From NCBI RefSeq assembly GCF_000172995.2, contig NC_014735.1:150001-182000 (forward strand): a stretch of 32,000 nt of DNA, read 5' to 3'. Positions 11,992 through 32,000 of the stretch are shown here, piece after piece. Numbering within the stretch: the first letter of the stretch is position 1; the number at the start of each line of letters is the position of its first letter. The position numbers were made by a program, and so were the translations under genes. Origin of the DNA: Halogeometricum borinquense DSM 11551 (lineage in GTDB: Archaea; Halobacteriota; Halobacteria; Halobacteriales; Haloferacaceae). The notes under the pieces were generated by a model. The model saw nothing but the letters and a program-made list of their open reading frames with translations. It was not told the origin of the DNA and made no database searches.

Positions 11992-11997
11992 CACATC

Positions 11998-13021: not shown

Positions 13022-13046
13022 AGGAGGTTTATTATCTCCTACTTTT
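13022..13046 (+). terminator. hairpin plus T-run downstream of the second ABC-2 operon (candidate terminator)
   Basis: AGGAG (13022-13026) and CTCCT (13036-13040) form a 5-bp stem around a 9-nt loop, followed by TTTT at 13043-13046. This lies ~120 nt after the stop at 12900. The signal is weak. Confidence 0.25.
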
Positions 13047-13062
13047 CAAAGACTGTTAAGAC

Positions 13063-13852: not shown

Positions 13853-13928
13853 ACATTCCAAGATAATGTTCACTACCCTATAATAGTTATGAGAAAACAA
13901 ATAATTCTGACACTTCTGCAATCAGAGA

Positions 13929-14351: not shown

Positions 14352-14523
14352 GTTGTGAATAATAACACCAAATATCTGGAGATAACTAAGTGTGTCGGCT
14401 CTAGGGATCTGTTGAATTATTCAGACAATCGACGTATGCGTCGTGGACATCTATAATTAGATCCCAACTACTTTGTCTGAACCAAGCTACAAAAGCTGTC
14501 TGTAGGTGAGGATAAGATCCGAT

Positions 14524-15984: not shown

Positions 15985-17172
15985 ATGTCATCCATGCGTC
16001 TCGTGTTGCTCGGTATCGGTCAGGCCGGTGGGAAGATTGTTGACCGGTTTCTCGAATATGAACGACAGACCGAGCAGGACTTCATCGAAGGAGCAGTCGC
16101 GTTCAACACTGCACGCGCTGATCTCAAAGAACTGTCTCACGTTCCTGAACACCATCGCCAGCTATTCGGGGAGGTTGATGCCAAAGGCCACGGCGTCGGT
16201 GCGGACACTGAGTTCGCCGCCGACCTCGCTGAGCAAGACGCACAACAACTCATCCGGTCGCTAGACGATATCCCGACCTCTCGGGCCGATGCGTTCCTCG
16301 TCGTCGCGGGATTGGGCGGTGGAACGGGGAGCGGTGCCGCTCCGGTACTCGCCAACGAACTCGACCGAATCTACGAAAAACCCGTCTACGGACTCGGAGT
16401 TCTCCCCGCTTCCGAGGAAGAGGATGTCTTCGCGTACAACGCCGTCCGGTCGTTCCGGACACTTGTCAATCACGTTGATAACCTCCTCTTGTTCGACAAC
16501 GATACGTGGCTCAAATCCGGCGAGGAAGTCACGGAAGCGCACGACCGTCTCAACGGCGAATTAGTCCGTCGGCTTTCGGTGCTATTCAACGCGGGCGAAG
16601 TTACCGACGAGAACGTGGTCGCCGAGAGCGTCATCGATTCGAGCGAAATCATCAACACGCTCCGTGGCGGTGGCGTTTCGACGATTGGCCACGCATCGAG
16701 TACGCTGCCAACCGACGACTCGTCGGGCTTCAGCCTCGGTAACCTGTTTGGCTCGTCTGACAACGAACCCGACGAAATCGAGGCGATGAATCGAATCACC
16801 ACTGCGGCACGGAAAGCGACGCGCGGACGGCTGACGCTTCCCTGTGACGTCTCGAGTTCTCAACGAGCGCTCGTGGTTACGAGTGGTCCGCCCCAGTGGC
16901 TGAGTCGAAAAGGTATCGAGCAGAGCAGACAGTGGATCGAAGAGGAGACCGAAAGCATGGAGATTCGTGGCGGTGACGACCCGCGCTCCGATTCAGACCG
17001 GGTTTCGGTGACAGTGCTGTTCGCTGGCGTGACGGACATCCCTCGAATCGAACAGTTGCGAGAACGGGCGCTTAAAGCGGCCGAGTCGAGTGGTGACTCC
17101 GACGACCTCTCGGAGACGGAACTCGATGATTTCGCTGATAGTTCAGTCGATGGCTCGGATCTGAAGCGCTAA
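15985..17172 (+). CDS. cetZ: CetZ, archaeal tubulin/FtsZ-superfamily cell-shape protein
   Basis: N-terminal LLGIGQAGGKIVDRF, tubulin signature GLGGGTGSGAAPVLA, and DNLLLFDNDTW with NAGEV closely follow the recalled Haloferax CetZ1 pattern rather than FtsZ. An alternative start is the ATG at 15994 (MRLVLLGIGQAGG). Confidence 0.9.
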   Translation: MSSMRLVLLGIGQAGGKIVDRFLEYERQTEQDFIEGAVAFNTARADLKELSHVPEHHRQLFGEVDAKGHGVGADTEFAADLAEQDAQQLIRSLDDIPTSRADAFLVVAGLGGGTGSGAAPVLANELDRIYEKPVYGLGVLPASEEEDVFAYNAVRSFRTLVNHVDNLLLFDNDTWLKSGEEVTEAHDRLNGELVRRLSVLFNAGEVTDENVVAESVIDSSEIINTLRGGGVSTIGHASSTLPTDDSSGFSLGNLFGSSDNEPDEIEAMNRITTAARKATRGRLTLPCDVSSSQRALVVTSGPPQWLSRKGIEQSRQWIEEETESMEIRGGDDPRSDSDRVSVTVLFAGVTDIPRIEQLRERALKAAESSGDSDDLSETELDDFADSSVDGSDLKR

Positions 17173-17193: not shown

Positions 17194-18210
17194 TTACTGG
17201 GGTGCGCTCACGTTCACCCAGAGGTGATTCTCACGGTATGCGTTGTCTATCGTCGGATTCTCTGGGGCTGATCCTTTGTAGAGCAGATAGGTGAGTCTGA
17301 GTCGGTCACCGGTCATCGAAGGTGAGACTGTCGTTTTCGTCGACCACGTACTGTTCGCCCCGACTGTTTGCGTGTATCGGTGTAACTCGGTTCGCTCCCG
17401 TACTACCGTTGCGTTATTCTGCCTTTCGACGCGATGGAGTTGTGCTACTACGGTGTACTGCACTTCTCGCCCTTCGTGGTTTCCGATGCCGATGTGCAGT
17501 GGCTTTGCCTCGCCGCGGATGAACTCCGTCGGATATTCGTCGGCTACCAAGTCGCCTGACTCGTCTTCGGTGAGCAAGTACAACTCGGAGAACTGCTCTC
17601 CCGGCGGTGGCACGAAAATTGCATATCCGGTACTCCCGGCGGCGAGAAGGATGCTGACTACCAGCAACACGTTCAGTGCTGCATCCGCCCGCGAGTCTGG
17701 CGCAAACAGTTCCGCTTTCGCGTCGGTGATCCAGCGCTCGTACGGGACGACGAACCGATCGGTTTCGTTGAGCGCCTGACGACGGCGTGATGCGACGAAT
17801 GTGAGGATGACTGTGAACGCGCTGACGATGGCCACGATGGGGATGAGGCGCATTCCCCACGGAGTGAAATTGAGTAGTAGGCCGATTAGCGGGACGACAG
17901 CGATGCTGAGACCGAACGAGAGCGCAACCCGCTCGATGCCGTCGATGCCACTTTCGATCTCCGTCTCGTTGTCGTCCATCCTTGTGGAGCGCTCGGCTGC
18001 TTCGGGAAAGAGCGCGGCAACGAGCGCGTATCCGGGGATGAACAACAGATACGGGAGGCCGAGGATGATTCGAATCGGCGTCCCCTTGATGACAGGAATA
18101 GTCGCCGCTGCGACCGTCAAGACGACGAGTACGAGGACTGCCCCGAGGTCTGCCGGGAGAGTTCGGAGTGGCCTCGGGAGGAGGAGCCGCCAATCCATGT
18201 CTCGACTCAT
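17194..18210 (-). CDS. DUF1616-family membrane protein
   Basis: The N-terminal segment is PADLGAVLVLVVLTVAAATIPVIKGTPIRIILGLPYLLFIPGYALVAALFPE. It has four or five TM helices and then a soluble beta-rich C-terminal domain, the typical DUF1616 layout. Confidence 0.7.
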   Translation of the reverse strand: MSRDMDWRLLLPRPLRTLPADLGAVLVLVVLTVAAATIPVIKGTPIRIILGLPYLLFIPGYALVAALFPEAAERSTRMDDNETEIESGIDGIERVALSFGLSIAVVPLIGLLLNFTPWGMRLIPIVAIVSAFTVILTFVASRRRQALNETDRFVVPYERWITDAKAELFAPDSRADAALNVLLVVSILLAAGSTGYAIFVPPPGEQFSELYLLTEDESGDLVADEYPTEFIRGEAKPLHIGIGNHEGREVQYTVVAQLHRVERQNNATVVRERTELHRYTQTVGANSTWSTKTTVSPSMTGDRLRLTYLLYKGSAPENPTIDNAYRENHLWVNVSAPQ

Positions 18211-18235
18211 TTGCTACGTCTCAGTCAACGTCCCA

Positions 18236-20446
18236 CTAAAATTGGTCGGTCTGATCGACTACCTGCTGTGCAACTTCGAGCAGCTCCAAAGCGCGGTCTC
18301 TCTGCACTGGCTCAGGTGCGTACGCCGCTTGCTCGTAGGCACTCGTGAGTTCGGTGAATATGGCGCTCACGTCTTCGGACGCCTCCGCCCGGACGTGCTC
18401 TAACAGTTCCCAGTGCGTCAGCGATTTTTCAACGCCGAGCGAGTCGGTCATCTTGGTCCGTATCGTCTCGTAGGTTGCAATGACCGCCTCGTCGGTCGCA
18501 CCGCGCGCTAACTGTGGTTCGACGACCGCAGCCAGTTCGGCATCCACCGCAGCAGATTCAGTGGCGTCTGCCGTGGCGGTTGTCGTGATCTCTTCTGTCT
18601 CTGCTGCGGCTATCTCAGACGACACGCTCTGTTTCTGATCGCGTTTCCGACTCAGCAGGTCGAGTATGCGTGTCGGAAGCAACTCGAGCGCTTCAGCCGC
18701 TACGATTCCGCTCGTCCCTAACACAGCCAGCAGGCCGACGATTGCGATGAACCCAGTCGGTGCGTTCCACCACGACGTTCCTGTTCCTGTGTGCTCACCG
18801 CTCGGAACAGTCAATTCGACTGCGTCGGTACTGGGTTCGAGATTTCCACCGTTCGGATCGTAGGCCGCTGTGACAGTGACAGAACCGTTCGCTTCTTCGA
18901 GGCCGATTGTCGATTGAACCATCCCACGTGCGTCCGTCGAGAGCGTCTTAACCGTCGTTCCGCCGACTCGAATCTGTATCTGTTGGCTACTGACTGGCTG
19001 TCCAGAGTCAGTCGTGAGTTGCCCGCTGATCTGCGCGGCCGAGTTCGTAACGTTCGTCGCTGACAGCGAGAGATTCGTCTCCGTTGACCGGATTTGAACG
19101 GCCGTTCGGTTCTGCGCGCTACTGATCGCTCGGTCGGTGAGTGCAACCGCCGCATTCGCTGTTTGCGTTCCGACCGCGAGACTGGCGGGAACGGGGAGTG
19201 GTACGCTGAAGGTTCCGTTTGCCGTCGTCGTGACCGTTCTGGACCGCTCTCCGAGCGAGACACGGACGGGGACGTTTGCCACGTCGCGTCCGGCGGCACT
19301 AACTCGGCCAGTAAACCGAACTATCTCCCCGTATCGGGCGGTTTCATCCGACCGACTCACCGTCACGGAAGCGTTCGTCTGTCTCACCGAGAGACCGACG
19401 GTCGTCTCCGACCGGCCGTAAAGCGACGTTCGGGCTGGTCGGTACATAACGCGCACTCGGTCGCTATCGAGCGACAGCAACGTCGGTCGATAGACGAGGT
19501 CGAAACGGCCCTCAGCGTCGGTTTGAGTTCGTAACAGTTGCTCGCCAACCAAAACGTTAATCGCTCGATTTGCGACTGCCTTCGACTCATTTGTGGCCAG
19601 CCGTCCGTCTAATCGAGTCGGTGACCCGAAGCTAGCGGTCGTCCGATTCGCACTGATCTGTAACGTCGTTTCGACGAACTCCAACTCACGAATCTGCTCC
19701 GATGTCTCCGTCGTGTTTTCTACAACCACCTCGATGGTCTGGCTTCCTTCGTCGAGGTCGAGTGAAGTTCGATCCGTTAGCTGTTGGTACTGGCCTTGCA
19801 GTTGTCCGCCGGTTCGATTCACAGCGACCGCGTCGGCTACCAGTTCGCGCGCCAGGGATCGAGCTTTCGAGGTGTTACCGCTCTCACGCGCTCGCTCGTA
19901 CTTCGATTTGGTCTCGCGGAAGTCGTTGACTGCCTCAATGTAGGAACGCTGTTGGGTTCGCGTCTTGTTGAACTCCGCCAGCGTCTCTTCGCTGTCTCCA
20001 CGCTCACCGGACTCCTGAACGACTGTCGCGTACTTCGAGGCCCAGTCCGGGTATGATTCATCGAGCCGAGAGCACGCAACGCGCTCTGCCACTCGGGTCT
20101 GTTCTGTACAGTCGATGAGCGTTTCTGAGATTCGCCCGGAGAGCCATTCTCGAATCGTGGATAGGTCTCCGCTGCCGGACGCGCTATCCGGGTTGGCGTG
20201 CTGTATCGTGGAGTTGTTCGAAGTCGTCGGCGCGTCTGTCGGTGTTGCGACCTGACTCACGCTCGGCGCGGGAGCCGGGGCTGGACCGCCAGTTGAGACT
20301 CCCGCGACCCCGCCGACCGGTGCGACGACAAGGCAGAACGCGATGAGGCCGATTGCGACTGATGCAGCACCCCCCTTGAGTGTCACTGTTGGTGAATACG
20401 CGAAGCGGATCGTAAAACATCTTGCGCACTCTCGTTCGGATGCCAT
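18236..20446 (-). CDS. large membrane-anchored surface protein with Ig-like (carboxypeptidase-regulatory-like) repeats and a cytoplasmic C-terminal DUF4129-like domain
   Basis: The start at 20446 (MASERE...) or a GTG at ~20385 is preferred over the listed 20524, which would overlap the divergent DUF58 gene. Order of elements: N-terminal TM, an Ala/Pro/Thr linker, three repeats of the form G.L.T..G.PV....I.V......T.TDA.G.F, a TM (GFIAIVGLLAVLGTSGIVAA), then ...SLTHWELLEHVRAEASEDVSAIFTELTSAYEQAAYAPEPV. Confidence 0.7.
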   Translation of the reverse strand: MASERECARCFTIRFAYSPTVTLKGGAASVAIGLIAFCLVVAPVGGVAGVSTGGPAPAPAPSVSQVATPTDAPTTSNNSTIQHANPDSASGSGDLSTIREWLSGRISETLIDCTEQTRVAERVACSRLDESYPDWASKYATVVQESGERGDSEETLAEFNKTRTQQRSYIEAVNDFRETKSKYERARESGNTSKARSLARELVADAVAVNRTGGQLQGQYQQLTDRTSLDLDEGSQTIEVVVENTTETSEQIRELEFVETTLQISANRTTASFGSPTRLDGRLATNESKAVANRAINVLVGEQLLRTQTDAEGRFDLVYRPTLLSLDSDRVRVMYRPARTSLYGRSETTVGLSVRQTNASVTVSRSDETARYGEIVRFTGRVSAAGRDVANVPVRVSLGERSRTVTTTANGTFSVPLPVPASLAVGTQTANAAVALTDRAISSAQNRTAVQIRSTETNLSLSATNVTNSAAQISGQLTTDSGQPVSSQQIQIRVGGTTVKTLSTDARGMVQSTIGLEEANGSVTVTAAYDPNGGNLEPSTDAVELTVPSGEHTGTGTSWWNAPTGFIAIVGLLAVLGTSGIVAAEALELLPTRILDLLSRKRDQKQSVSSEIAAAETEEITTTATADATESAAVDAELAAVVEPQLARGATDEAVIATYETIRTKMTDSLGVEKSLTHWELLEHVRAEASEDVSAIFTELTSAYEQAAYAPEPVQRDRALELLEVAQQVVDQTDQF

Positions 20447-20511
20447 CTGTCGTCGTCGGTTAACTCGAACGGGCACACTTTTGTGCTCCAGACCGAAGTG
20501 ACCACAGACAG

Positions 20512-21954
20512 ATGCGGCCGACAAACCGGTTTTGGGGCGCGGTGGGTACAGGCGGACTGCTCTGCGTACTCGCTGGCATTTTTGCCGATCCGCTCTTGCT
20601 CGGCGCTGCTGCGCTCATCGCTGGAACTGTTCTCATGAGTCAGTACCGGTTCACGAATGAACTACTGACTGTCTCGAGTGCGATGTCGGTCGAACAACAC
20701 CTCTCGCGCACCCACGTACTCACCGACGAACCGGTTCTGTTAACTCTTCGCGCGGATCTCCCGGTGGAAACACTGCTCGATGTCACTATCTCACCGTCAC
20801 TGCCGCTCATCGCAACGTCTGTCTCTCCGGATGAACGGACGGTATCTGTCGCGGACGGGCAGGTGACACGGCAGTCGTACCAACTGACCGTCCCGACGGC
20901 TGGTGTTGCACGGTTTTCCCCACCGGAGGTGACCGTGACTGGCCCAGCCGGATGCTTCGAGGAGACGTTCTCGGTCGCAGTCGAAGAAACGCTGACCGTT
21001 GAACCACGAGCACCGCGCCGAATTCACGTCGGACAGGGCGGAAACAGGGTTTCGACTAGTTTCGGCGAACACGAGTCCGGGCAGCGTGGGTCCGGTCTGG
21101 AACCCGCCGAGATACGGCGGTACGTCTACGGAGACGACATCAGCCGGATCGATTGGAAGGCGACGGCACGACTCAACCATCCCCACATCCGTGATTACGA
21201 GATGCCGACCGTACGGCAGACAGCACTCATCGTCGATCATCGGGCATCGACGGCGGACGGGACGCCCGGCGAGACAAAGCTCGATTTCCTGCGGGAGATT
21301 GCGCTCGCGTTCGTCAACAGCGCGGATTCGTTGGACGACCCTATCGGTCTCTACACTGTCGGTGACGAGGGAACGACGAATACGGCACCACCGAGAGCGA
21401 GCGAAAGGCAGTATCGGTCGATTCGTTCGACGCTTCGTAATCTGGAACCGACGACTGGTGAGAGCGGGGCCGCTGACGCAAAACCGGGACAAGCGGCGAT
21501 ATCGCGCCGCACTGCAACAACTCTCTCCGAGGATAACACCGCATTTGGGGAGACGCTTCGACCGTATTTCGGTGCGACCAACCGATACGCCGACCGATTT
21601 GCTGACCGACCACTGTTTTCGACGACGCAATCCCGTCTCGGCCGGTTGCAGGGTGCCGTGTGGAGTGTCGTGCTGACTGACGATACGAATCGGAGCGAAC
21701 TGTACGAATCGATCAAAGCCGTGCGTCGAACTGAGGGCCGCGTCCTCGTGTTTATCACGCCGTCGGCACTGTTCGATTCCACACTGGGCAATATCGAGGC
21801 AGCCTACGCCGAATACCGTGAGTTCGAGTCGTTCCGCAAGCGCCTCAACAAACTCGACGGCGTTACCGCGTTCGAGGTCGCTCACGAAACCAGACTGGAA
21901 TCGATCCGGCAGTCAGGGCCGAGCAGTCAGCGACGCTCGGAGGGGTGGGGCTGA
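20512..21954 (+). CDS. DUF58 domain protein (VWA-like partner of MoxR ATPases)
   Basis: Two N-terminal TM helices are followed by the family signature EIRRYVYGDDISRIDWKATARLNHPHIRDYE. A MoxR gene lies in the same cluster. Confidence 0.85.
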   Translation: MRPTNRFWGAVGTGGLLCVLAGIFADPLLLGAAALIAGTVLMSQYRFTNELLTVSSAMSVEQHLSRTHVLTDEPVLLTLRADLPVETLLDVTISPSLPLIATSVSPDERTVSVADGQVTRQSYQLTVPTAGVARFSPPEVTVTGPAGCFEETFSVAVEETLTVEPRAPRRIHVGQGGNRVSTSFGEHESGQRGSGLEPAEIRRYVYGDDISRIDWKATARLNHPHIRDYEMPTVRQTALIVDHRASTADGTPGETKLDFLREIALAFVNSADSLDDPIGLYTVGDEGTTNTAPPRASERQYRSIRSTLRNLEPTTGESGAADAKPGQAAISRRTATTLSEDNTAFGETLRPYFGATNRYADRFADRPLFSTTQSRLGRLQGAVWSVVLTDDTNRSELYESIKAVRRTEGRVLVFITPSALFDSTLGNIEAAYAEYREFESFRKRLNKLDGVTAFEVAHETRLESIRQSGPSSQRRSEGWG

Positions 21955-22427
21955 TGGCTGAGTCTCTCCCATCGTCGCCCGCCTCTCCGGCGTCTCTTGT
22001 CACTGGGTTTGGATTCGTTGCAGTCGCCGTCGGGTTGGTCGGCTCCGGTGGTCTGTTCGGTCTTCTGCTCTCTGTTCTCGTCGGTATCGCGGTGGCGTGG
22101 ACACCGAGAGTGTTCGCTGTCGCGTTCGGGGCCGTTTGTCTCGCCGCGCTGAGTTCCGACCCCCTGACAGGGGCGAATCTGCTTTCGGGTCTCGGCTTCT
22201 TCGGCCTTCTCCTCGGCGCTTCGACACAGGAGGCGACGTGGCGTCGCGCTCTCATTCTGAATATTGCCGCGTGCGCGATTCTGCTCTCCGTCCTCGCCGT
22301 CAGTTGGCAACTGACGACCAACCTGTGGTTGCTCGGCGCGATACTCTGCTGTCTGTGTGCCGTCGCTTTTTATACGATCCACCGCTATCAGCGAATTAGT
22401 ATGGGATTGGTTGAGGGGTCGGCATGA
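21945..22427 (+). CDS. small polytopic membrane protein, unknown function
   Basis: About 157-160 aa with four or five hydrophobic helices. GTG at 21945 or ATG at 21954 overlaps the DUF58 stop, and its own stop overlaps the next ATG as ATGA. Confidence 0.6.
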   Translation: MGLMAESLPSSPASPASLVTGFGFVAVAVGLVGSGGLFGLLLSVLVGIAVAWTPRVFAVAFGAVCLAALSSDPLTGANLLSGLGFFGLLLGASTQEATWRRALILNIAACAILLSVLAVSWQLTTNLWLLGAILCCLCAVAFYTIHRYQRISMGLVEGSA

Positions 22428-23335
22428 GTTCGGTGACCGAAACGGATGTGGACGACGAGTCTCCGCTGCACGATGAGTCGCCGGCCGACCGTGAGACGCT
22501 TCGTGGACGAATCGAGGTGTTGCGTGAGGAGAATCGACGACTCCGTGAGGAATATCTCCGCGCTCGGCAGGCGCAGTACCGGCGGACCGCAATCGGAATG
22601 GCCGCTATCGGCTTGTGTGCGTTGGCGGGGGCGGCAGTCCTCCCTGCGTTGCGGACGACGCTATTAGTCCTCGCAGGCACTGGCGGGTTCGGTGCGAGTC
22701 TGCTGTACTACCTCACGCCCGACCAACTTGTTCCCGTATCGGTCGGTCAGTCGGTGTTTACCGCACACGACCGGCACGCCTCCAGTCTGGTCGATGAACT
22801 CGGACTGCAGGATACGACGGTGTATGTTCCACGTGTCCGTGACCAAGAAGCGGTCTCGCCGGAGCAGATACGCCTTTTTATTCCGCAAGCGCGCGGGTGG
22901 GAGCTTCCATCAGATGACGCGTTGGCCGCGACGTTCGTCGAACCTGACGATGAGATGCGGCGGGGGATCTCGCTCGAACCGACTGGCGTCTCGCTGCTCT
23001 CGGAGTTTGCAGACGCGGCAAACACGAACCCTTCTGAGCCTGCTGATCTCGCCGACCAACTCTGCGAAGCCGTCGTCGAGCAGTTCGAACTCTCGACGTA
23101 CGCCGATGCGGAAGTCGATACCGCGACGAACCGCGTATCGGTCCGGGCGGGTCACTCGGCGTACGGCGAGTTGACGGCGTTCGACCATCCACTCGTGTCA
23201 GTCATCGGCGTGGGACTGGCTCGGGGACTCGGCGCGTCCGTCGAAACTGAGTCGGTCGAATCAGTCGATTCCGACGAGTACCTCATCTCGTACCGCTACC
23301 GGACGATTGACTCGGCTTCGACAAAACAGGGCTAA
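22424..23335 (+). CDS. hypothetical membrane protein with an N-terminal acidic/coiled-coil segment
   Basis: 303 aa. LRGRIEVLREENRRLREEYLRARQAQ (coiled coil) is followed by two TM helices and an acidic soluble domain. It is translationally coupled to the upstream gene. Confidence 0.65.
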   Translation: MSSVTETDVDDESPLHDESPADRETLRGRIEVLREENRRLREEYLRARQAQYRRTAIGMAAIGLCALAGAAVLPALRTTLLVLAGTGGFGASLLYYLTPDQLVPVSVGQSVFTAHDRHASSLVDELGLQDTTVYVPRVRDQEAVSPEQIRLFIPQARGWELPSDDALAATFVEPDDEMRRGISLEPTGVSLLSEFADAANTNPSEPADLADQLCEAVVEQFELSTYADAEVDTATNRVSVRAGHSAYGELTAFDHPLVSVIGVGLARGLGASVETESVESVDSDEYLISYRYRTIDSASTKQG

Positions 23336-24336
23336 TCCTTCTGTTTGGTACGGCCGCCATCACCGACTGCGGGAGCTTGTGCGGTCACGTCGCCCCGACT
23401 CGGCGGCGTCGTCGTGTCTAAGATGCCTTCGATGATTGCTTCGGGTTCGACGTCACCAATTTCGGCGTCGGTGCTGAGCACGAGACGGTGTGCGAGCGCC
23501 GACACCGCGAGTGTCTTCACGTCGTCAGGGATTACGTAGTGTCGGCCTTCGATTGCCGCGTGGGCTTTGGCCGCCTGTAGCAGGTGGAGGCTCCCACGCG
23601 GAGAGATTCCGTGACTCACGTCGGGCGTCTCTTGGGTTCCTTCGGCAATATCGAGAACGTAATCGCGGACTGGCTCGGCGACGTGGACGTTTTTGACCTT
23701 GGTGCGGGCCGAGGCGATGTCTTCAGCAGAGAGTACTTGTTCGAGATCGTCGGGGCCGAGATTCGGTTCGTAATTAAATCGGTCAAGGATCTCGGCCTGT
23801 TTGTCCCGGGAGGGAATGTCGATGGCGATCTTGAACTGGAAGCGATCACGCTGGGCTTCGGGGAGACCGAACGTCCCCTCCATCTCGATTGGGTTCTGCG
23901 TGGCGACCACCATGAACGGTGTCGGCAGGTTGAGTGTCTCGCCCTCGATTGTGACCTGCGTCTCCTGCATCGCTTCGAGCAGTGCGCTCTGCGTTTTCGG
24001 CGTCGCGCGGTTAATCTCGTCCGCGATGACGAGATTCGAGAACACGGGTCCGCGTTCTAACTCAAAAGCGCCGGTGTCCTCGCGGTATATTTTCGTCCCC
24101 GTAATGTCTGCGGGGAGTAAGTCCGGCGTCATCTGGATCCGTCGTCCTTGCAGTCCAGTCGTTTGGGCGAATGCGGCGGCTAACGTCGTCTTCGCGACGC
24201 CGGGGACACCTTCGAGAAGTAAGTGGCTCTGCGTGAGAAGTGAGATTGTGAGCCGCTTGAGGGCGTCCTCCTGCCCAATGAGAACTCGCGCCGCCTCCGT
24301 CTGGAGGGTTGAGTAAAGCTCCGCTGGGTCAGTCAT
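23332..24336 (-). CDS. MoxR-family AAA+ ATPase
   Basis: Walker A GVPGVAKTT, Walker B VIADEINRATPKTQSALLEAM, sensor region ATQNPIEMEGTFGLPEAQRDRF. The 334-aa length is typical. Confidence 0.93.
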   Translation of the reverse strand: MTDPAELYSTLQTEAARVLIGQEDALKRLTISLLTQSHLLLEGVPGVAKTTLAAAFAQTTGLQGRRIQMTPDLLPADITGTKIYREDTGAFELERGPVFSNLVIADEINRATPKTQSALLEAMQETQVTIEGETLNLPTPFMVVATQNPIEMEGTFGLPEAQRDRFQFKIAIDIPSRDKQAEILDRFNYEPNLGPDDLEQVLSAEDIASARTKVKNVHVAEPVRDYVLDIAEGTQETPDVSHGISPRGSLHLLQAAKAHAAIEGRHYVIPDDVKTLAVSALAHRLVLSTDAEIGDVEPEAIIEGILDTTTPPSRGDVTAQAPAVGDGGRTKQKD

Positions 24337-25381
24337 CTTCTGATAAATTGGTCTCTTCTGGCATAACTCCTGTCATTACACGGCCTAGCTCCGTCTCGTC
24401 CCAGTCGGGGTGCTGGGACGCAAGATATGCTCTCAGCGCATCTGCGTCTACTGGTGTCGACTCCGTTTTGCGGTCGAACACGCCAACGAGTTGCCGTGGT
24501 CGGAACACGATGACACCAACGAGTATGAGCGCTATCGCACCAAATCCAACTTGTGCGATTGGTGTGCGTTGAAGCCAGAGTACGAACCCGGCGAGCGGAG
24601 GTATCTGCTCTGTGTGGCTATAGTCGGCGACGACCCGGTCGTGTGATTCGAGAAGTCCAGTCACGAAGGCACGATTCCCCTCGCGTTCGAGCATTGCGTT
24701 GATGAACATCGAGGGGTCGCTGACGACGACTATCGTGCCGTCGCCAACGGACTCCTGCGTGGCGATGGGGCGCGATCCCAACGCCTCGCTATCATCGAGT
24801 TGGTAGTTTCGGTTGCTATCGACATAGGAGAACTCAGAACTCCGTGCAAGCACGGTTGTACCGTTCGCACGGAGCGCGCTTCCGTGGTTAAGCGTCAGCG
24901 TCTGGTCCGTGTTGAGGAACGTTGCGTTCGGTGTGGTGGTCGCCTCGCTAAAGTTCGGCGTCGTGGCGTACTGCTGTTCATCACGGAGCAGACGACCGTC
25001 GATGCGAACGTCGGAGTCGAGCGCTGAAAGAAGGGGGTTCGTATGCGGCCCGAAGTCGTCGGCAACGACGACCGTTCCGCCCTGTTCGACGAACTCCCGG
25101 ACTCGTTGTGCTTCCGCGCGTGTGTAAGCTTGATCTGGTGACAGAATGATCGAGACGGTATTGTTCGGCTCTCGGTACGCCGTTTCGAGTTCGGTCGCCA
25201 CGCTAAATGTGGCTCCAGTCTCCGATGCGACCGGTTGTACGTCCGCCGCACCGTTCCACGCTGAGTTGTACGCGCTGAACGATGCTGAACTGGTCGCCGC
25301 ACCGATGCCGAGACTCAGGACGACGACCACCGCGAGTCCGATGACGGCGATTCGGGCGTACTGCCCGATGCGATCAGCCAT
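24329..25381 (-). CDS. DUF4350-like membrane-anchored protein (MoxR-cluster component)
   Basis: The ATG at 25381 (MADRIGQYARIAVIGLAVVVVL...) lies 2 nt after the upstream gene's stop and is preferred over the listed 25486. It has an N-terminal TM, a segment VSIILSPDQAYTRAEAQRVREFVEQGGTVVVADDFG, and a C-terminal TM. It overlaps the MoxR start by 8 nt. Confidence 0.65.
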   Translation of the reverse strand: MADRIGQYARIAVIGLAVVVVLSLGIGAATSSASFSAYNSAWNGAADVQPVASETGATFSVATELETAYREPNNTVSIILSPDQAYTRAEAQRVREFVEQGGTVVVADDFGPHTNPLLSALDSDVRIDGRLLRDEQQYATTPNFSEATTTPNATFLNTDQTLTLNHGSALRANGTTVLARSSEFSYVDSNRNYQLDDSEALGSRPIATQESVGDGTIVVVSDPSMFINAMLEREGNRAFVTGLLESHDRVVADYSHTEQIPPLAGFVLWLQRTPIAQVGFGAIALILVGVIVFRPRQLVGVFDRKTESTPVDADALRAYLASQHPDWDETELGRVMTGVMPEETNLSEDD

Positions 25382-25383
25382 CG

Positions 25384-25659
25384 TTACAGCACCCCCGGCG
25401 GAAGGATTTCGAGGATTCGTTGGACGACCACGTACGCGAATCCGATCAGCCCGGCGAGAATTATCCACCGGAGTCGTCGCCGCCACCGCGGCGTGATCCG
25501 GAAGGGTGCAGTGAGTTCGACGTTGACCAGAAACGCGATCAGCGAGACGACGAAGAACAGTTCGAGAGAAAGACTCTCAAGAAGCGTCAGTACGACTGCG
25601 ACGGCGAGCATCGAAGCGACTTGCGCGTGGACAAACTGGTGCCGCTTCGAGAGTGGCAT
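25384..25659 (-). CDS. small membrane protein (91 aa, about three TM helices), first gene of the DUF4350-MoxR operon
   Basis: The ORF is hydrophobic with an RWRRRLRW loop and sits tightly against the downstream gene. Confidence 0.55.
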   Translation of the reverse strand: MPLSKRHQFVHAQVASMLAVAVVLTLLESLSLELFFVVSLIAFLVNVELTAPFRITPRWRRRLRWIILAGLIGFAYVVVQRILEILPPGVL

Positions 25660-25702: not shown

Positions 25703-26194
25703 TTATTTCGGTCGCTCCAGCGTCTGCAACACTTTGAGCGAGAGTTCGTCGCCGGTCAGTTTTCCCGCTTGGAACTGCTCGTACCACGAAACGTTGGCGT
25801 GCCACGTGCCGAACGGCGTGTCGGCGTCTTGCAGTACTGTCGCATCTAGTCGTTCGACATCCCACTCGGTATCTACCTGCCGGAAGAATCCGCCCGCAAT
25901 CATCCCGATTTCACCACCGAGTTCCTGATACGACGACTTCTTGCTGAGATAGCGGAGTGATACCGCTGTCTTGTCGCCGTTTAATGTTAGTCTCTTGACT
26001 GTTACATTTCGTTCGGTGATGTATGATCGGAACGCGGCCAGACGTCGCTCGTTGTTTGTCGGCGTCGAGGTCGCTTCTTCAGTGGTCGTTTCGCCGTCGG
26101 TGTTTTCTTCCGTAGCGGGCGCAGACGCACCACATCCCGCAATACTGGCGCAGCCACAAGTTCCGAGGCCGACGAGAAACGCACGGCGCTTCAT
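25703..26194 (-). CDS. Tat/lipobox lipoprotein of unknown function
   Basis: The signal MKRRAFLVGLGTCGCASIAGC is followed by a Thr/Glu-rich linker and a ~110-aa acidic domain. Confidence 0.7.
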   Translation of the reverse strand: MKRRAFLVGLGTCGCASIAGCGASAPATEENTDGETTTEEATSTPTNNERRLAAFRSYITERNVTVKRLTLNGDKTAVSLRYLSKKSSYQELGGEIGMIAGGFFRQVDTEWDVERLDATVLQDADTPFGTWHANVSWYEQFQAGKLTGDELSLKVLQTLERPK

Positions 26195-26383
26195 TTGTTT
26201 TGGTATTACAATACTGACGTATCAAATTTTCCGTCGGGGTACTTAACTAGCAACACCGAATTCATCGTCCGTAGGACATCACTGAATATTCTGACGACGC
26301 CGGGGAGACCCATTCTCTGTCTCGGTTTGGTTATTCTTTGAAAACATTCTGAAAAATAACATCGGGTTAACATATTCCGAAGT

Positions 26384-26390
26384 ATTATAT
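26384..26390 (+). promoter_or_regulatory. TATA-box candidate for the giant ORF (leaderless spacing)
   Basis: 'TATTATA' is centred ~27 nt upstream of the ATG at 26414. That ATG is the first one after an in-frame TAA at 26369-26371. Confidence 0.45.
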
Positions 26391-26413
26391 CCCTCGTTGT
26401 GTTTCACAGAACC

Positions 26414-29400
26414 ATGAGGCTCGGGAATAGCAACCGCACCAAACTGATAAGTCTGGTGCTAGTGGGAGTCGTGGTCTTCTCCACAGTCGTCGGACCTGTG
26501 TCCGCGGCTTCCGCGTTGTCAGGTGAACAGGATTCTACTCACAGTGTCGCCGTTCCGGGGAGTGGAACGGCGCCGCTTTCCGTGAGTGATGATCTCAAGA
26601 TAAATGCGACAGAGAATATCTCAGTCTGGCAGTATAGTCTGTTGCCGCTACGAGCGCAGACATTTAGTACGCCAGATGTGTCCGACGTTCAGAAACCCGC
26701 ACACTCGATTGAGAGTACTTCTGTGAGGATTAAGACGGGAGACCTATCCACATCGCTGGATAAACAACAGTTCCACGTTTTCACACGCGGGGAACCGATC
26801 ACGTCGAAGTTCTTCCAAGACGGGTATCAGGACGTCATCGACGATGAGCGCGTTCAGACAGTCGCTATCCGACTGAAAGAGGGTGCCGAGAAACCCGATT
26901 CGATCGAGCATATCAGTCGATACATCACTGACAGCGAGAACACGCATGCTCGAATTATCAATGACACGACGGGTGAACCCGGTAAGAACTACTTCCGATT
27001 TACACCCCAGAAATCCGGTCAGTACGTCTTTGCAGTGGCGATAGTCGAGAACGGGAGCCAACCTGACCATCCCGGCCTCGTTCAGATTTCTGACGGTGAT
27101 CTCGAAGCCAAGAGCAACATTACCATTGTTGGCTTTAATCACTACATCGTGCGTGAGGGTGCGTCCTCGGTCAGTCATCAACCGGTCGCCGCTACCGGCA
27201 GCAATGTCTCGGTACACGTGGACGCCTCGCAGAACCTCAGCGCGTCCGACGTGTCTCATACCGTTCTCTTGCTCAACGAAACCGAAATCAGCGACCAAAG
27301 CCAGGAAATTCGAGTCAACGGGACGGAAATCGAGGCTATCGAATCTTCTGTCTCTGGTGTTGAAGGCGTCGTCGATATCGAGGATGGTACGAACATCCTC
27401 GGAAGCGAACTTCCCAAAGGCCAGTACAACGGAAATACGAACGTTATCTCGCTGCTCGAACGGCTGACTGATAATTCGACGAACGTCACTTCGACCGGCG
27501 ATACGACGCTGTACTCGTCGTTGACCAGTACCGTTGGTGGCCCGACGGAGACTGTCTCGCTGCAAACGAACGAGAATTTCTCGACCGGCGAGTACTCGAT
27601 TATTCACTTTGCAACGGCGCAGGACAGCACCGAAACCATCACGTCCGAAAGCACGATCAAACTCGTCGAAGGCGTCCAACTGAACCTCGCGGCGAACAAC
27701 ACGACGGTTCGGCAGGGGACGCCAGTCACGTTCACGGTGACCAACGAAGAGGATGAGCCGGTTGCCAACGCCAACGTGACCTACGCTGGCGAGACCTACA
27801 CGACGGGCGCTGACGGAACCGTGACGTTCTCCCCGAAGGAGTCCGCCACGGCAACCGTCAGTAAGGAACCGGTCGGTGACACGGCCTATATCGGTGACAG
27901 CGTCGCTCTCTCCGTTGTGGCTCCCGCGTTCGAGCTGACCGAGTTCGATCTCTCCACGACGGAACTGTCGAGCGACGAGACGCTGGTCGTCAACGGTACC
28001 GTTCAGAACGTCGGTGACTTCGAGGGCTACTTCACCTTCGAACTCAAGCGCGACGGACAGATCATCGACGAGCAGACGGTTCAGGTCGCTCCCGGGCAGA
28101 CCGCTGCTGCCTCCTTCGATGTGACGTTCGACCAGACCGGCCAGTTCGATATCGGTCTCAACAGTCTGGCTCCGAAGACGGTGACTGTCACTGGTATTCC
28201 GGACATCGAGTACTCCAACTTCGATGTCAGCTCGACCGACGTTGACCTCGGTGACAGTGTCACGGTGTCCGCGACCGTCGAAAACAACGGCTCCGGTCCG
28301 GGCGAATACAACGCCTCGTTCGTCAAGAACGGCGATATCACCGACTACCAGAACGGAACGCTCGGCGCTGGTGAGTCGAAGACCATCTCGTTCACCAAGA
28401 CGCTCGCGCCCGGCACGTACGACCTCGGAATTGCCGGACTCGGTCCCGCGACGGTGACCGTTAACGCACCGGCGAACCTCGAATACTCGAACTTCGAGGT
28501 GTCTCCGGATACCGTCGCACTGGGCGAGTCCATCACCGCGAACGCGACGGTCGAAAATACCGGTGGTCAGGCTGGCTCCTTCCTCGTCGCCTTCGCTGTC
28601 GATGACGAGGTTCTGGAGACGAGAAACGTCTCCTTGGACAGCGGCGAGACCACGAATGTCTCGTTCACCGCGGACAGTCTCGGTATCGGCGACCACACGG
28701 TTCGCATCGGCTCGCTCGATGCGAAGACCGTGACCGTCTCCGCTCCCGACCTCGCGGCGACCGTGACGAACACGCCGTCGGAGGTCTCTGAGGGCGTCGT
28801 TCCGGTCGAAGCGACGGTCTCGAACGTCGGGAACGCCGAGGTGACCGATGCGACGGTTGTCCTCGACGCACAGCCTGAAGGCGGGTCCAACTACACTCAA
28901 CTGACGAACGAGAGCGTGACGCTCTCGCCCGGCAGTTCGACGACGGTGACTGCTGAACTCACCCGTGCGGAAGCACGGAACTACACCGTTCGCGTCCGTG
29001 CCGATGCGGACGATCAGTTCACCGAACCGGACGAACAGAACAACATTGACGAACAGTTGGTCACTGGTGGTCCGCTTATCACCGGGACCATCAACACGTC
29101 TGACGGCGACGCGGCGGCCGACGACGTCGTGTACAGCTTCGTCCTCGACGGACTGAACGTGACCGCTGTGAACGGTGCCGTGACCAACGACAACGGGACG
29201 TTCTACGTCCCCGCGAACGCGACGACCGAACAGAACGTCGGCTACCGGCAGCTCAACCTCTCAGCTAGCCAAGCCGATGATCCGGTGTTCGAACGCGACG
29301 GTTCGCCGGACATCTACGCGCTGACGACGGTCCCCGCCGTGACGAACGTCTCGAACATCGGGACGTTCGACCTGCCGAACGCCGGTGTGCTGAACGTCAC

Positions 29401-32000
29401 GGTCGTAGACCAAGACGGCGACCCTGTCGAGGGAGCAACTGTCACTGTCGTCCATCGGAACAACGACGCGATCACGGGTATCACCGAATCGACGACGGCG
29501 CAAGGAACACCCATCTTCAGTGAAGGCGGTGAGACCGGCATCGAGGTTCGCGGTGATGTCGGTGTCATCGTCGAACCACCGGAAGAAGACCGGTTCTCTG
29601 AGGGTCCGTACACGCGCAACGTCACTGTCAGCGAGAACGGCAAAGATCTCGTCATCCATCTCGCCGAAGGCGCTGATCTGAAGCCCGACCTCGATATCGA
29701 GCGACAACAGCGCTTCGGCGACAACGTCACAGCGAACGTGACGGTCTCGAATGACGGTCTCGTGGATGTCGATAACGCAACTGTTGACCTCCGGATTCGG
29801 AGTGCATCCGGTGAGACGAAGACGCTCACCAAGCACACAGGCTTCGTCGCCAACCGGACCGACAGTGCGAACGAGACGGAACTCTCGTTCGACTTCACCG
29901 ACTTCGCTGAGGACAACCTGCTCGGCGACCTTGCGGACGGCAACGCCCGCGTGACGGTTATCGTTGACCCGAACAACGAAATCACCGAGACGGACGAAGG
30001 CAACAACATCGCAGTCAACTCGACGCTCGTCCGGTACGCTGACGCCGACGTTCGGGTCTTCGTCCCGAAAAACACGCTGGCCAGTACGCCCACCAACACG
30101 GTCGTATTCGTGAAGAACAACGGTACGGCACCGATTCTGAACGCGACGGCCGCGGTTGACTACGGTGATGGCAGTAACACGACGGTCGATCTGGGTCGTA
30201 TCAACGCCTCGCAGACCAACACCACGCGAGCGCCTCACACCTACAACAGTGGTGGCGATTACACGGTGACTGCGACGGTTGACGACGCAGTACCGTTCGA
30301 CAACAACGAGGCAGCGAAGACGATTGAGGTCAAAGCGTTCGATCTGAACCTCGACGCGGAGGACATCTCGGTCCCGACTGACGCGACGAACGGGACGACG
30401 TTCACCGCGACGGCACGGTTCCAGACGAACTACCCGACGACGGTGAATGCGACGCTCGAACTCCCGGACGGCCTCGAACTGGTCGCTTCGGAGAACGCGA
30501 GCAAAGATGTCCCAGCATCCGCTACCGGTGGGACCGCTGCGTGGAAGGTCCGAGTCAACACGACTGAGGATGTCTCCGACGCGCAGGTGAACGTCACGAC
30601 GAAGGCACACGGCCAAACGTCGTCGGCGAGCACCACTCTGAACCTCTCGGTGCCGAAGATCCGCCTCACGGACACCAACGCGACGACGCTTTCGTCGGGT
30701 TCGGACAACGTGACGGTTGATCTGTCCAGTGCGACGACCTACGACCACACGGTGAACGTCACCGTGCAGGCTGGTTCACAGGGACGGACCCTCGCAGGCC
30801 TCGAATATCTGTTCACCTACCCGTACGGGTGCGTCGAGCAGACGACGAGCCAGATGATGGGTGCGCTTCGGACGGACCAGTACTACCGCAGTGGCGACAT
30901 CCCGAACAACTACAACCGGCAACGGGCGAACGACACTATCGAAATCGGTGTCGAAAAGCTCGGCACGAACCAAGCGTCCTCGCTCATCTGGCCTGATCTC
31001 GCACAGAACGAGGACGGCTCTTGGAGCATGTACGGCGGCGCCTTCTACGACGAGGGCGACCTCTACTACACGACCGCCGCGCTGCAGGGCGTGACGTCGG
31101 TTGCAAACGACGAAGTGCAAGGGACCCGCGCTGAGGTCTCAGACGATATCCAGACGGTCAACGCAAGTCGTTCGATCGAGTGGCTCTCCGACCACCAGCG
31201 CGCTGATGGCTCCGTCCCCGCGACGGATTACTTCCTCCGCGACCAGTTCTCCTCGACGGGGTACACGATGGTCGCGTTCGACCGCGCAGAGCCACACCTC
31301 AACTCGAGTGCTACGCAGACCGCCGAGGACTTCCGCGTCGATGCGGCAGTCTTCCTCATCGAGAACCAGAACAGCGACGGTAGCTGGGCGAGCGACCGAA
31401 GTCAGTCCGACATCAGCCAGAAACCGCAGGCGACTGCACTCGCGCTCCGCGGCCTCGCAACGGTCAACGAGAGCGCTGCACTCCGTCAGCGTGTGAATCA
31501 ACAAACCGATACCGACCTGTCCACTGCCATCGATAACGGTTCGCAGTGGCTGATCGACAACCAGAACGCCGATGGCTCGTGGGACGCCTATCGGAACTCC
31601 TTCTTCTGGAGTTCTAACGGCGAAGTCACGCGGGCGACGGGTCACTCGATCCTTGCACTGAACGAGACGCAGGGCGTGACGACCCAAGGAACCTCGGACG
31701 CAGCCGACTCTGTCGAGGATGCCACCGACTACCTCGTTGGCGTCTACGACAGTGACGGCTCGTTCGGTAACACCCGTGCGACGGGTGTGGCAATCAACGC
31801 GCTGACCACCGCGGACCAGCGCGGTGTCACTCCGCAGACCGTCGATGTGACGGTTGGCGGCGTGACGAAGACCGCATCGGTCGATAGTTCGACGACGACC
31901 GATACGGTCACCTTCTCGACCAGTGAACTTCAGCAGTTCCGCGACGAGGGAACTGGTAAAATCGAGTTAGAGGCACAGAACTCCGACAGCCTCGTCGTCA
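26414..32000 (+). CDS. giant secreted CARDB/PKD-repeat protein with an alpha-2-macroglobulin-type thioester domain (3'-truncated by the window edge; at least 1,862 aa)
   Basis: I translated frame 2 by hand from the ATG at 26414 to nt 31999 and found no stop. Frame was checked at 27929, 30830, 31001 and 31982. Elements in order: Sec signal MRLGNSNRTKLISLVLVGVVVFSTVVGPVSA|AS; CARDB-like repeats (EYSNFDVSSTDVDLGDSVTVSATVENNGSG..., ...DPNNEITETDEGNN); a PKD-like motif VDYGDGSNTT...HTYNSGGDYTVTATVDD; then LEYLFTYPYGCVEQTTSQMMG and repeated DGSW motifs. The ORF is not in the supplied track, presumably because it has no stop in the window. Confidence 0.9.
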   Translation, partial: MRLGNSNRTKLISLVLVGVVVFSTVVGPVSAASALSGEQDSTHSVAVPGSGTAPLSVSDDLKINATENISVWQYSLLPLRAQTFSTPDVSDVQKPAHSIESTSVRIKTGDLSTSLDKQQFHVFTRGEPITSKFFQDGYQDVIDDERVQTVAIRLKEGAEKPDSIEHISRYITDSENTHARIINDTTGEPGKNYFRFTPQKSGQYVFAVAIVENGSQPDHPGLVQISDGDLEAKSNITIVGFNHYIVREGASSVSHQPVAATGSNVSVHVDASQNLSASDVSHTVLLLNETEISDQSQEIRVNGTEIEAIESSVSGVEGVVDIEDGTNILGSELPKGQYNGNTNVISLLERLTDNSTNVTSTGDTTLYSSLTSTVGGPTETVSLQTNENFSTGEYSIIHFATAQDSTETITSESTIKLVEGVQLNLAANNTTVRQGTPVTFTVTNEEDEPVANANVTYAGETYTTGADGTVTFSPKESATATVSKEPVGDTAYIGDSVALSVVAPAFELTEFDLSTTELSSDETLVVNGTVQNVGDFEGYFTFELKRDGQIIDEQTVQVAPGQTAAASFDVTFDQTGQFDIGLNSLAPKTVTVTGIPDIEYSNFDVSSTDVDLGDSVTVSATVENNGSGPGEYNASFVKNGDITDYQNGTLGAGESKTISFTKTLAPGTYDLGIAGLGPATVTVNAPANLEYSNFEVSPDTVALGESITANATVENTGGQAGSFLVAFAVDDEVLETRNVSLDSGETTNVSFTADSLGIGDHTVRIGSLDAKTVTVSAPDLAATVTNTPSEVSEGVVPVEATVSNVGNAEVTDATVVLDAQPEGGSNYTQLTNESVTLSPGSSTTVTAELTRAEARNYTVRVRADADDQFTEPDEQNNIDEQLVTGGPLITGTINTSDGDAAADDVVYSFVLDGLNVTAVNGAVTNDNGTFYVPANATTEQNVGYRQLNLSASQADDPVFERDGSPDIYALTTVPAVTNVSNIGTFDLPNAGVLNVTVVDQDGDPVEGATVTVVHRNNDAITGITESTTAQGTPIFSEGGETGIEVRGDVGVIVEPPEEDRFSEGPYTRNVTVSENGKDLVIHLAEGADLKPDLDIERQQRFGDNVTANVTVSNDGLVDVDNATVDLRIRSASGETKTLTKHTGFVANRTDSANETELSFDFTDFAEDNLLGDLADGNARVTVIVDPNNEITETDEGNNIAVNSTLVRYADADVRVFVPKNTLASTPTNTVVFVKNNGTAPILNATAAVDYGDGSNTTVDLGRINASQTNTTRAPHTYNSGGDYTVTATVDDAVPFDNNEAAKTIEVKAFDLNLDAEDISVPTDATNGTTFTATARFQTNYPTTVNATLELPDGLELVASENASKDVPASATGGTAAWKVRVNTTEDVSDAQVNVTTKAHGQTSSASTTLNLSVPKIRLTDTNATTLSSGSDNVTVDLSSATTYDHTVNVTVQAGSQGRTLAGLEYLFTYPYGCVEQTTSQMMGALRTDQYYRSGDIPNNYNRQRANDTIEIGVEKLGTNQASSLIWPDLAQNEDGSWSMYGGAFYDEGDLYYTTAALQGVTSVANDEVQGTRAEVSDDIQTVNASRSIEWLSDHQRADGSVPATDYFLRDQFSSTGYTMVAFDRAEPHLNSSATQTAEDFRVDAAVFLIENQNSDGSWASDRSQSDISQKPQATALALRGLATVNESAALRQRVNQQTDTDLSTAIDNGSQWLIDNQNADGSWDAYRNSFFWSSNGEVTRATGHSILALNETQGVTTQGTSDAADSVEDATDYLVGVYDSDGSFGNTRATGVAINALTTADQRGVTPQTVDVTVGGVTKTASVDSSTTTDTVTFSTSELQQFRDEGTGKIELEAQNSDSLVV
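30827..30841 (+). other. predicted thioester motif G-C-V-E-Q (Cys1473/Gln1476 of the giant ORF)
   Basis: Codons ggg tgc gtc gag cag at 30827-30841 lie in the context YPYGCVEQTTS. This matches the CxEQ thioester signature of A2M/complement-family proteins (GCGEQ in human A2M, CLEQ in E. coli ECAM). Confidence 0.7.

Follow-up and report, generated by a model that had tools for sequence, protein, structure and literature searches.

A window of 32,000 nucleotides (nt) from Halogeometricum borinquense DSM 11551 (GCF_000172995.2, NC_014735.1) was analysed, and all coordinates given below are positions in this window unless stated otherwise. Its 3' end carries a long plus-strand gene for a predicted secreted protein related to the alpha-2-macroglobulin (A2M), complement and TEP proteins, preceded by a divergent gene for a DUF8159 protein and by a module of genes that includes a MoxR ATPase (Table 1). 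A sequence-only reading had noticed that the frame starting with the ATG at 26414 is open to the window edge, and that this gene is absent from the track of listed open reading frames (ORFs), on which only certain ORFs in other frames are found at this place. Both observations were correct. Translation from 26414 to base 31999 gave 1,862 codons, with one base over and no in-frame stop, and the track shows exactly the other-frame ORFs that had been named. With the stop frequency expected from base composition (0.032 per codon), the probability of an open run of 1,862 codons is approximately 2.6e-27. The omission is technical and not a biological oddity: the program that lists ORFs skips those running off either end of the source sequence, and the gene has no stop inside the window. 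As ORFs at window edges are silently dropped and antisense shadow ORFs take their place, genes at window edges need an explicit check.

The codon statistics proposed in the same reading also favoured the plus frame. The GC content by codon position in the 26414 frame was 0.59/0.45/0.74, and the three long minus-strand ORFs, which had been regarded as shadows of the gene, behaved as such. They share one common antisense frame, are rich in Arg (14-20%) and Val (12-17%), and have their highest GC content at codon position 1 (0.73-0.78), which mirrors the sense-strand GC content at the third codon position (GC3) of 0.74. A Pfam search with all three (E<=0.1) returned nothing but one sub-threshold match in the 182-aa (amino acid) ORF. 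On the basis of homology, domain matches, a confident structure model and the codon-position statistics, 26414-32000 is a real plus-strand gene. GC3 was lower in the first 1.2 kb of the gene (26414-27613; 0.59-0.65) than in the remainder (0.72-0.81), and the GC content of window positions 26001-27000 was 0.51; given the low GC3, the N-terminal part of the gene may have a different history.

Table 1. Features at the locus, with window coordinates and the basis of each assignment (CDS, coding sequence; Ig, immunoglobulin; MG, macroglobulin)
Feature	Position	Strand	Basis and remarks
CDS, predicted secreted A2M/TEP-like thioester protein	26414..32000	+	5' end complete, 3' end cut by window edge
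TATA-box-like element ttatat (putative)	26386..26391	+	23 nt 5' of ATG 26414; read from sequence
Sec-type signal peptide (predicted), residues 1-31	26414..26506	+	Sequence; probable cleavage after VSA; similar N-termini in P0014 and P0024
N-terminal region, residues 32-504	26507..27925	+	No significant family match; weak CarboxypepD_reg-like match at 441-484
Four consecutive CARDB Ig-like domains, residues ~505-884	27926..29065	+	Pfam; boundaries approximate
Region of ~200 residues, 885-1085	29066..29668	+	Weak transthyretin-like/CarboxypepD_reg and DUF7382 matches, all below curated cut-offs
Fifth CARDB and CARDB/PKD-like domain, residues ~1086-1305	29669..30328	+	Pfam; pairwise identities
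MG-like beta-sandwich before CUB, residues ~1306-1412	30329..30649	+	AlphaFold model strands 25-114, block-mean pLDDT ~88-96
CUB-like domain, first half, three strands, residues ~1413-1455	30650..30778	+	AlphaFold model, Foldseek
Thioester-containing domain (TED), alpha/alpha toroid, residues ~1456-1799	30779..31810	+	Pfam PF07678, PDB profile, model, Foldseek
Thioester motif Cys-Val-Glu-Gln, residues 1473-1476	30830..30841	+	Sequence; alignments A3 and A5
CUB-like domain, second half, cut by window edge	31811..32000	+	Model strands 510-574 and terminal helix; orthologue C-terminus
Shadow ORF, 718 aa, not a gene	26744..28900	-	15% Arg; GC by codon position 0.73/0.44/0.57; no Pfam match
Shadow ORF, 495 aa, not a gene	29261..30748	-	19.6% Arg, 17.3% Val, isoelectric point (pI) 10.7; no Pfam match
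Shadow ORF, 182 aa, not a gene	31139..31687	-	Antisense frame of the other two; one sub-threshold Pfam match
Short ORFs in another plus frame	27096-27467, 31101-31496	+	ORF list
DUF8159 gene, divergent	25703..26194	-	Product Tat/lipobox lipoprotein-like (MKRRAFLVGLGTCGCASIAGC; MKRRAFL...IAGC)
Module: DUF1616, 762-aa DUF4129/MG4 protein, DUF58, DUF8163, DUF7982, MoxR AAA+ ATPase, DUF4350, DUF8044	17194..25659		Pfam

A GenBank protein of Halogeometricum borinquense (P0001; CP048739.1), which is 1,852 aa long and is named 'cell adhesion protein', is 98% identical to the product over 1,834 residues. By comparison with this orthologue, the stop codon of the gene (hereafter the TED gene) lies approximately 18 codons past the window edge, and the full gene has approximately 1,880 codons. 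The window and the locus of P0001 (L005) are collinear, with 97-98% nucleotide identity, save for an insertion of 3.27 kb that contains an insertion sequence in L005. This insertion (L005 6482-9751, at window ~26249-26256) carries an IS240-type transposase and lies approximately 160 bp 5' of the TED gene ATG; the two blastn alignments overlap there by 8 bp, which may be a target-site duplication.

Upstream of the ATG at 26414, the nearest in-frame stop is a TAA at 26357, and a GTG at 26399 is the sole candidate start in between. The intergenic spacer before the ATG is 219 bp long and AT-rich (GC 0.41). It includes the putative promoter element ttatat, with a spacing that is compatible with the leaderless mRNAs of haloarchaea. 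Position 26414 is taken as the likely translation start because the signal peptide is encoded in frame in L005, because the N-termini of P0014 and P0024 are similar, and because ttatat lies 23 nt upstream. The GenBank start of P0001 is a GTG equivalent to window position 26498, by which the signal peptide is cut off; on the 5' side of this start, L005 nevertheless encodes MRLGNSNRTKLISLVLVGVVVFSTVVGPVSA in the same frame, and P0014 and P0024 have N-termini similar to it. The GenBank start of the Haloferax sp. S1W orthologue (P0002) likewise leaves out the signal peptide. Both proteins are probably annotated too short at the N-terminus, and the label 'cell adhesion protein' together with a start that lacks the signal peptide under-describes the protein and hides the evidence for its export.

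The 1,862 residues encoded in the window have a pI of 4.12, 14% Asp+Glu, 60 N-glycosylation sequons (NxS/T) and a single cysteine, and the description of the product as acidic was thus accurate. The Sec signal that had been read at its N-terminus is plausible from the sequence, with MRLGNSNRTK followed by a 19-residue hydrophobic stretch and VSA/AS. The further description as repeat-rich was right for diverged domains and wrong for the DNA: five stretches matched CARDB (PF07705; E 3.6e-28, best at residues 778-878) and six hand-delimited CARDB-like segments had pairwise identities of 25-45%, and no DNA tandem repeats were found in the gene. Pfam matches in residues 1-499 were all sub-threshold. 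The anticipated C-terminal PGF-CTERM or transmembrane (TM) anchor did not materialise. The 98% identical P0001 ends without either, 18 residues past the window edge, in the acidic tail ...IGVESVQVVNEDEHTENN, which is also present in Haloferax orthologues; no PGF-CTERM or TM segment was found at the C-terminus of P0001, P0002 or P0006, all of which end in an acidic tail.

The C-terminal third of the protein is a true member of the A2M/complement/TEP module, with an MG-like domain followed by what the structure model predicts to be a CUB domain with an inserted TED. This TED with its CVEQ is the feature of the gene that tells most about it, and the sequence-only reading had missed it. The Pfam match to PF07678 (A-macroglobulin TED) scored 39.6 bits against a cut-off of 22. 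The TED contains the motif YPYGCVEQTT at residues 1469-1478, and Cys1473 is the sole cysteine of the 1,862 residues. The C, E and Q of CVEQ were invariant in alignments A3 and A5. A3, an alignment of 20 homologues, was used for a profile search of the PDB and for an AlphaFold model. The profile matched A2ML1 (2.5e-15), CD109 (5e-15) and human A2M (1.9e-12), with profile positions 19-511 aligned to human A2M residues 795-1297, and also Salmonella and E. coli A2M (~1e-10), TEP1 (4e-10) and C4 (7e-10). The top match, squalene-hopene cyclase (1e-22), covered the helical repeats only.

The AlphaFold model built on A3 had a mean predicted local distance difference test score (pLDDT) of 85.1 and a predicted template modelling score (pTM) of 0.68; an earlier run on a 5-sequence alignment (pLDDT 54) was discarded. 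In the model a beta-sandwich is followed by three strands, thirteen helices, five strands and a terminal helix. When the model was compared with the PDB by Foldseek, the best 50 matches were all to A2M, C4b, A2ML1, CD109, C3b, C5 or TEP1 (E 3e-22 to 1e-17), over approximately 600-650 alignment columns that cover the whole MG-CUB-TED module, with an identity of 12-16%. TM-scores near 0.4 would be expected of a query that has three domains of variable relative orientation. The placement of the TED within the CUB domain comes from the predicted model and not from a solved structure. The N-terminal two thirds of the protein are not recognisably of MG type.

An exhaustive HMMER search with residues 1401-1862 retrieved 117 cluster representatives, 64 of them at E<1e-10. 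Nearly all of the strong matches were proteins of 1.2-4 thousand aa with the domain near the C-terminus. PF07678 was present in all 25 family members scanned and MG2 in 8 of the 25. A constant C-terminal module is combined in the family with highly variable N-terminal decorations (PKD, PQQ propeller, cohesin, MG2). The motif P[YH]GC[VPIA]EQT was intact in the full-length members, and its Cys was the only cysteine in 22 of 51. The Haloferax orthologue is 48% identical, and in P0002 both CVEQ and the same C-terminal tail are present. When contigs were scanned with TED peptides, no haloarchaeal locus came up and the matches were confined to remote loci of Verrucomicrobiota and Planctomycetota; the loci compared below were located by exact protein matches instead. 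With a single cysteine each, the protein and its Haloferax orthologue lend themselves to direct tests of thioester chemistry in archaea.

The gene is a further member of a known archaeal family that has so far been described computationally only. Twenty-seven archaeal A2M/TEP homologues were found in 24 genomes, mainly of Halobacteria and Methanomicrobia (Makarova et al. 2021, Front Microbiol 12:721392, PMC8416519). These proteins have a signal peptide, Ig domains, a TED and an intact CxEQ in a variable domain organisation, and their gene neighbourhoods include surface proteins, peptide (ABC/FtsX) transporters and endoproteases (PMC8416519). The protein described here resembles them (e.g. WP_050459478.1 of Haloferax gibbonsii) in its signal peptide, Ig-like domains, TED and CxEQ. 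A term search of part of the supplements of PMC8416519 did not reveal a Halogeometricum A2M homologue, and no other paper on haloarchaeal thioester proteins was found in full-text searches. The present gene adds a Halogeometricum member to this little-studied group of A2M/TEP-like proteins.

Two genes that follow the TED gene in L005 are of interest for the way in which its product might be held at the cell. The first, directly 3' of the TED gene, encodes a 413-aa protein with a signal peptide and a C-terminal type I dockerin (Pfam Dockerin_1, E 1.7e-9), a module that also matched PDB dockerins at 2.5e-6. The product of the second has 299 aa and a PGF-CTERM anchor. Along its whole mature length, the 413-aa protein aligns at 33% identity (E 4e-46) with a C-terminal extension of the Halobacterium bonnevillei TED protein, and C-terminal extensions of approximately 400-450 aa are present in nine further family members, most of which match Pfam Dockerin_1. 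This gene fusion or fission ties the TED protein and the dockerin protein together. In all five loci compared, the product of the gene after the dockerin module begins with a homologous domain of approximately 140 aa and has a PGF-CTERM or TM anchor. A profile of this domain had as its best PDB match the cohesin-like module of Clostridium perfringens NagJ, over the full length (E 0.14-0.4), and one of the five domains had a Pfam Cohesin match (1.8e-5). Haloferax sp. S1W and two metagenomic contigs have the same split set of a TED gene, a separate dockerin gene and a further gene; for S1W and the first of the two contigs, comparison showed that the further gene encodes a homologue of the anchor protein.

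Cohesin and dockerin modules occur in anaerobic methanotrophic (ANME) archaea (PMC9012536). The type I dockerin and the anchored cohesin-like domain are reminiscent of the non-cellulosomal cohesin-dockerin pairs of C. perfringens (NagJ/NagH) and of archaea. In those pairs the cargo is a glycoside hydrolase, whereas here it would be a thioester protein; the dockerin here is on a separate polypeptide, and the assignment of the cohesin is weak. Whether the dockerin partner, downstream or fused, provides in its first domain the MG8/bMG10 shield that is missing from the TED protein was also examined. The idea found no support: bMG10 was matched weakly in one of 10 members (E 0.02-0.09) and PF00207 weakly twice.

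Taken as a whole, these observations are probably best explained by a real gene for an exported, stalked A2M-like thioester protein that is held at the cell surface. An acidic product, probably N-glycosylated, would be exported by means of its Sec-type signal peptide; its CARDB and related Ig-like domains form a long stalk, which ends in the MG-like/CUB/TED module. After export, Cys1473 and Gln1476 would form an internal, shielded thioester, which a trigger, most likely proteolytic cleavage or a conformational change, would expose. The exposed thioester could then react with an amine or hydroxyl group of a nearby molecule to give a covalent bond. The protein has no predicted membrane anchor of its own and would be held at the surface, probably through the products of the next two genes; tethering by the dockerin partner and the anchored protein is plausible. 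Candidate targets would be foreign or own proteases, competitor cells and viruses. The dockerin module and the anchored protein, together with links to proteases described below, provide concrete hypotheses on how the protein is deployed.

Several points weigh against this explanation. The thioester bond in the archaeal members is a prediction. No MG1-MG6 domain or bait region was recognised by Pfam on the protein, where CARDB, PKD-like and CarboxypepD_reg-like domains were found, and a phmmer search of residues 1-1299 against the PDB gave one chance-level match and nothing meaningful. In characterised family members, an MG8, receptor-binding domain (RBD) or bMG10 after the CUB domain shields the thioester; no such C-terminal shield was found here, where the approximately 80 residues after the TED form the second half of the CUB domain. 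The window ends before the downstream genes, which are deduced from the 97-98% identical strain. The TED protein is itself without a dockerin, although a dockerin partner is supposed to hold it. For the anchor protein, the evidence for a cohesin is weak, with E values above 0.1 in the PDB search and a Pfam match in one of the five domains, and BLASTP comparison of the 299-aa anchored protein with the cohesin-bearing P0022 detected no similarity.

How the thioester would be used was considered in two forms. The protein might be a covalent adhesin or tagging factor, comparable to complement C3, to TEP opsonins or to Gram-positive thioester adhesins, in which the TED bonds to a surface, a cell or a virus. 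The long CARDB Ig-like stalk is consistent with such a role, as is the name 'cell adhesion protein' of the GenBank orthologue, although this name derives solely from the CARDB domain label. Variable N-terminal decorations joined to a constant C-terminal module would also be expected of variable recognition combined with a fixed warhead. Roles in immunity and conflict have been raised for the archaeal A2M homologues by Makarova et al. (PMC8416519). However, neither a convertase-like activator nor an anaphylatoxin or C345C domain was found. The adhesin reading is possible, though less likely than not.

The eukaryotic thioester proteins (human A2M, A2ML1, CD109, C3/C4, insect TEP1) share with the present protein the MG7-like/CUB/TED order and PxGCxEQ. 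They differ from it in that MG8/RBD, anaphylatoxin and C345C domains and disulphides are missing here (there is a single Cys), and the N-terminal two thirds of the protein are unrelated to theirs. At the surface of Gram-positive bacteria, the TIE adhesins (Streptococcus Cpa, SfbI) present a Cys-Gln thioester on an Ig-like stalk for covalent adhesion. The resemblance to them is functional only: their thioester domain is of another fold and motif, and not the alpha/alpha toroid TED found here.

In a more specific version of the preferred explanation, the protein would inhibit proteases in the manner of the bacterial A2M 'snap-trap': a protease cuts an exposed bait, the protein collapses around the protease and the thioester fixes it covalently. 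The matches to Salmonella and E. coli A2M at ~1e-10 in the PDB profile search agree with this, and TED genes are repeatedly linked to secreted proteases. P0015 and P0037 (L011 7001-15898) are fusions of an S8 subtilase with the TED protein, and an S8 subtilase is encoded next to the TED gene in L008. In L009 (1-13335), a 2,240-aa protein with S8, CARDB, cohesin and dockerin and a 2,659-aa protein with trypsin and dockerin lie beside a TED protein with cohesin and dockerin. Some family members (L009; P0015; P0037) thus occur in cellulosome-like sets of secreted proteases. Were the protein such a trap, the cell envelope would be protected from foreign proteases or from those secreted by the cell itself. 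This version is nevertheless less likely than not: neither a bait region nor an MG1-MG6 ring was recognised, the CUB domain is not followed by MG8 or bMG10, the window and the flanks of L005 yielded no protease gene, and the penicillin-binding protein 1C (PBP1C) partner typical of bacterial A2M genes is absent.

The same differences appear in a direct comparison with the bacterial A2M proteins (E. coli YfhM/ECAM, Salmonella SaA2M; PDB 4u48, 5a42), which like the present protein are exported and have multiple Ig domains, a TED inserted in a CUB domain and CxEQ. Those of bacteria are lipoproteins of the periplasm in which MG1-MG10 and a bait region can be recognised; their C-terminal MG10 covers the thioester, and a PBP1C partner is frequent. 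Here a CARDB-type stalk was found, with neither bait region nor MG10, nothing after the CUB domain and no PBP1C gene. The motif of the bacterial proteins is CLEQ, compared with CVEQ here.

It was also considered that the TED carries no thioester and is a non-reactive binding or structural domain, either of an ordinary surface glycoprotein or of an enzyme similar to prenyltransferases and terpene cyclases. Some bacterial A2M homologues do lack the thioester, homologue fragments bear the GenBank name 'prenyltransferase/squalene oxidase repeat-containing protein', and squalene-hopene cyclase was the top PDB profile match for the helical repeats. This reading is improbable. CxEQ is invariant and its Cys is so often the sole cysteine (22/51 members), the similarity to cyclases is limited to the repeat part of the TED whereas the A2M-family matches span the MG-CUB-TED module, and the protein is predicted to be exported, away from isoprenoid substrates. 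A cyclase or prenyltransferase identity was rejected on the scores of the TIGR01787, TIGR03463 and TIGR01507 cyclase models (18-24 bits against cut-offs of 322-851) and on the absence of the DxDD motif (D.DD) from the TED.

There is practically no chance that the long plus frame is fortuitous and that the genes are instead the ORFs of 718, 495 and 182 aa on the minus strand: these are long and were the only long ones on the track, but were rejected on their composition (Arg 14-20% and, for the 495-aa ORF, a pI of 10.7, atypical of a haloarchaeal proteome), on a GC peak at codon position 1 that mirrors the sense GC3, and on the lack of Pfam support (one sub-threshold match in all, against several for the plus frame), and the plus frame has a product with more than 100 homologues and a confident fold, and an open run that would arise by chance with P ~3e-27.

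The exported A2M-like protein preferred here is encoded in a neighbourhood that is partly conserved. In the window and in L005-L007 the DUF8159 gene is the divergent neighbour of the TED gene; in L010 it lies on the downstream side, and in L008 it is reduced to a 56-aa fragment. The block at 17194-25659 also flanks the TED genes in L005, L006 and L007. A core of MoxR, DUF58, DUF4350 and DUF4129 is present beside the distant S8-fused TED gene in L011 and is missing in L008 and L009. A functional link between the MoxR module and the TED gene is conjectural.

The main text of PMC8416519 makes no mention of dockerin, cohesin or MoxR; what is added here is incremental, namely a dockerin module encoded by a gene of its own, a conserved partner that carries an anchor, and the link to MoxR. 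When these elements are combined, an apparatus for covalent capture at the cell surface of haloarchaea and some other archaea can be imagined. In it a dockerin module would attach the A2M-like thioester 'warhead' to a cohesin-like PGF-CTERM anchor, warhead and dockerin being separate polypeptides in Haloferacaceae, and the system would be linked to secreted subtilases or trypsin-like proteases and to the MoxR/DUF58/DUF4350/DUF4129 module. This combination is speculative, and as a whole it is rather unlikely. If it is true, the MoxR/DUF58/DUF4350/DUF4129 module might mature or assemble the apparatus, which would be an archaeal analogue of complement/A2M defence or a shield against the proteases of the cell itself.

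The 762-aa DUF4129 protein of the module (18236-20524, minus strand) had a Pfam match to macroglobulin MG4 of 27.5 bits, compared with a cut-off of 24.7. This may reflect a generic Ig-like similarity or a real link to the A2M-like neighbour. In three loci, a gene for an FtsX-type ATP-binding cassette (ABC) permease of approximately 995 aa, with CarboxypepD_reg/PEGA-like extracellular domains, lies a few genes 3' of the TED gene, at positions outside the window (L005 23588-25559; L006 17305-20301; L007 18896-21877), and an ABC ATPase gene is alongside in L006 and L007.

Further upstream in the window, positions 8000-15000 form a low-GC island, with a GC content of 0.39-0.46, compared with 0.57-0.62 elsewhere, and a GC3 of 0.39-0.42. 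It encodes a FilR1-type regulator (8361-9149, minus strand), a 660-aa ABC-2 permease (10009-11991) and an ABC ATPase (11998-12900), and three further ORFs (13310-13921, 13929-14351 and 15110-15748, all on the minus strand) had no significant Pfam match. The island was probably acquired horizontally; no tRNA gene that could mark it was found in the window. At its edge lies a gene for a CetZ-type tubulin (15985-17172, plus strand; CetZ_C E 1.2e-68).

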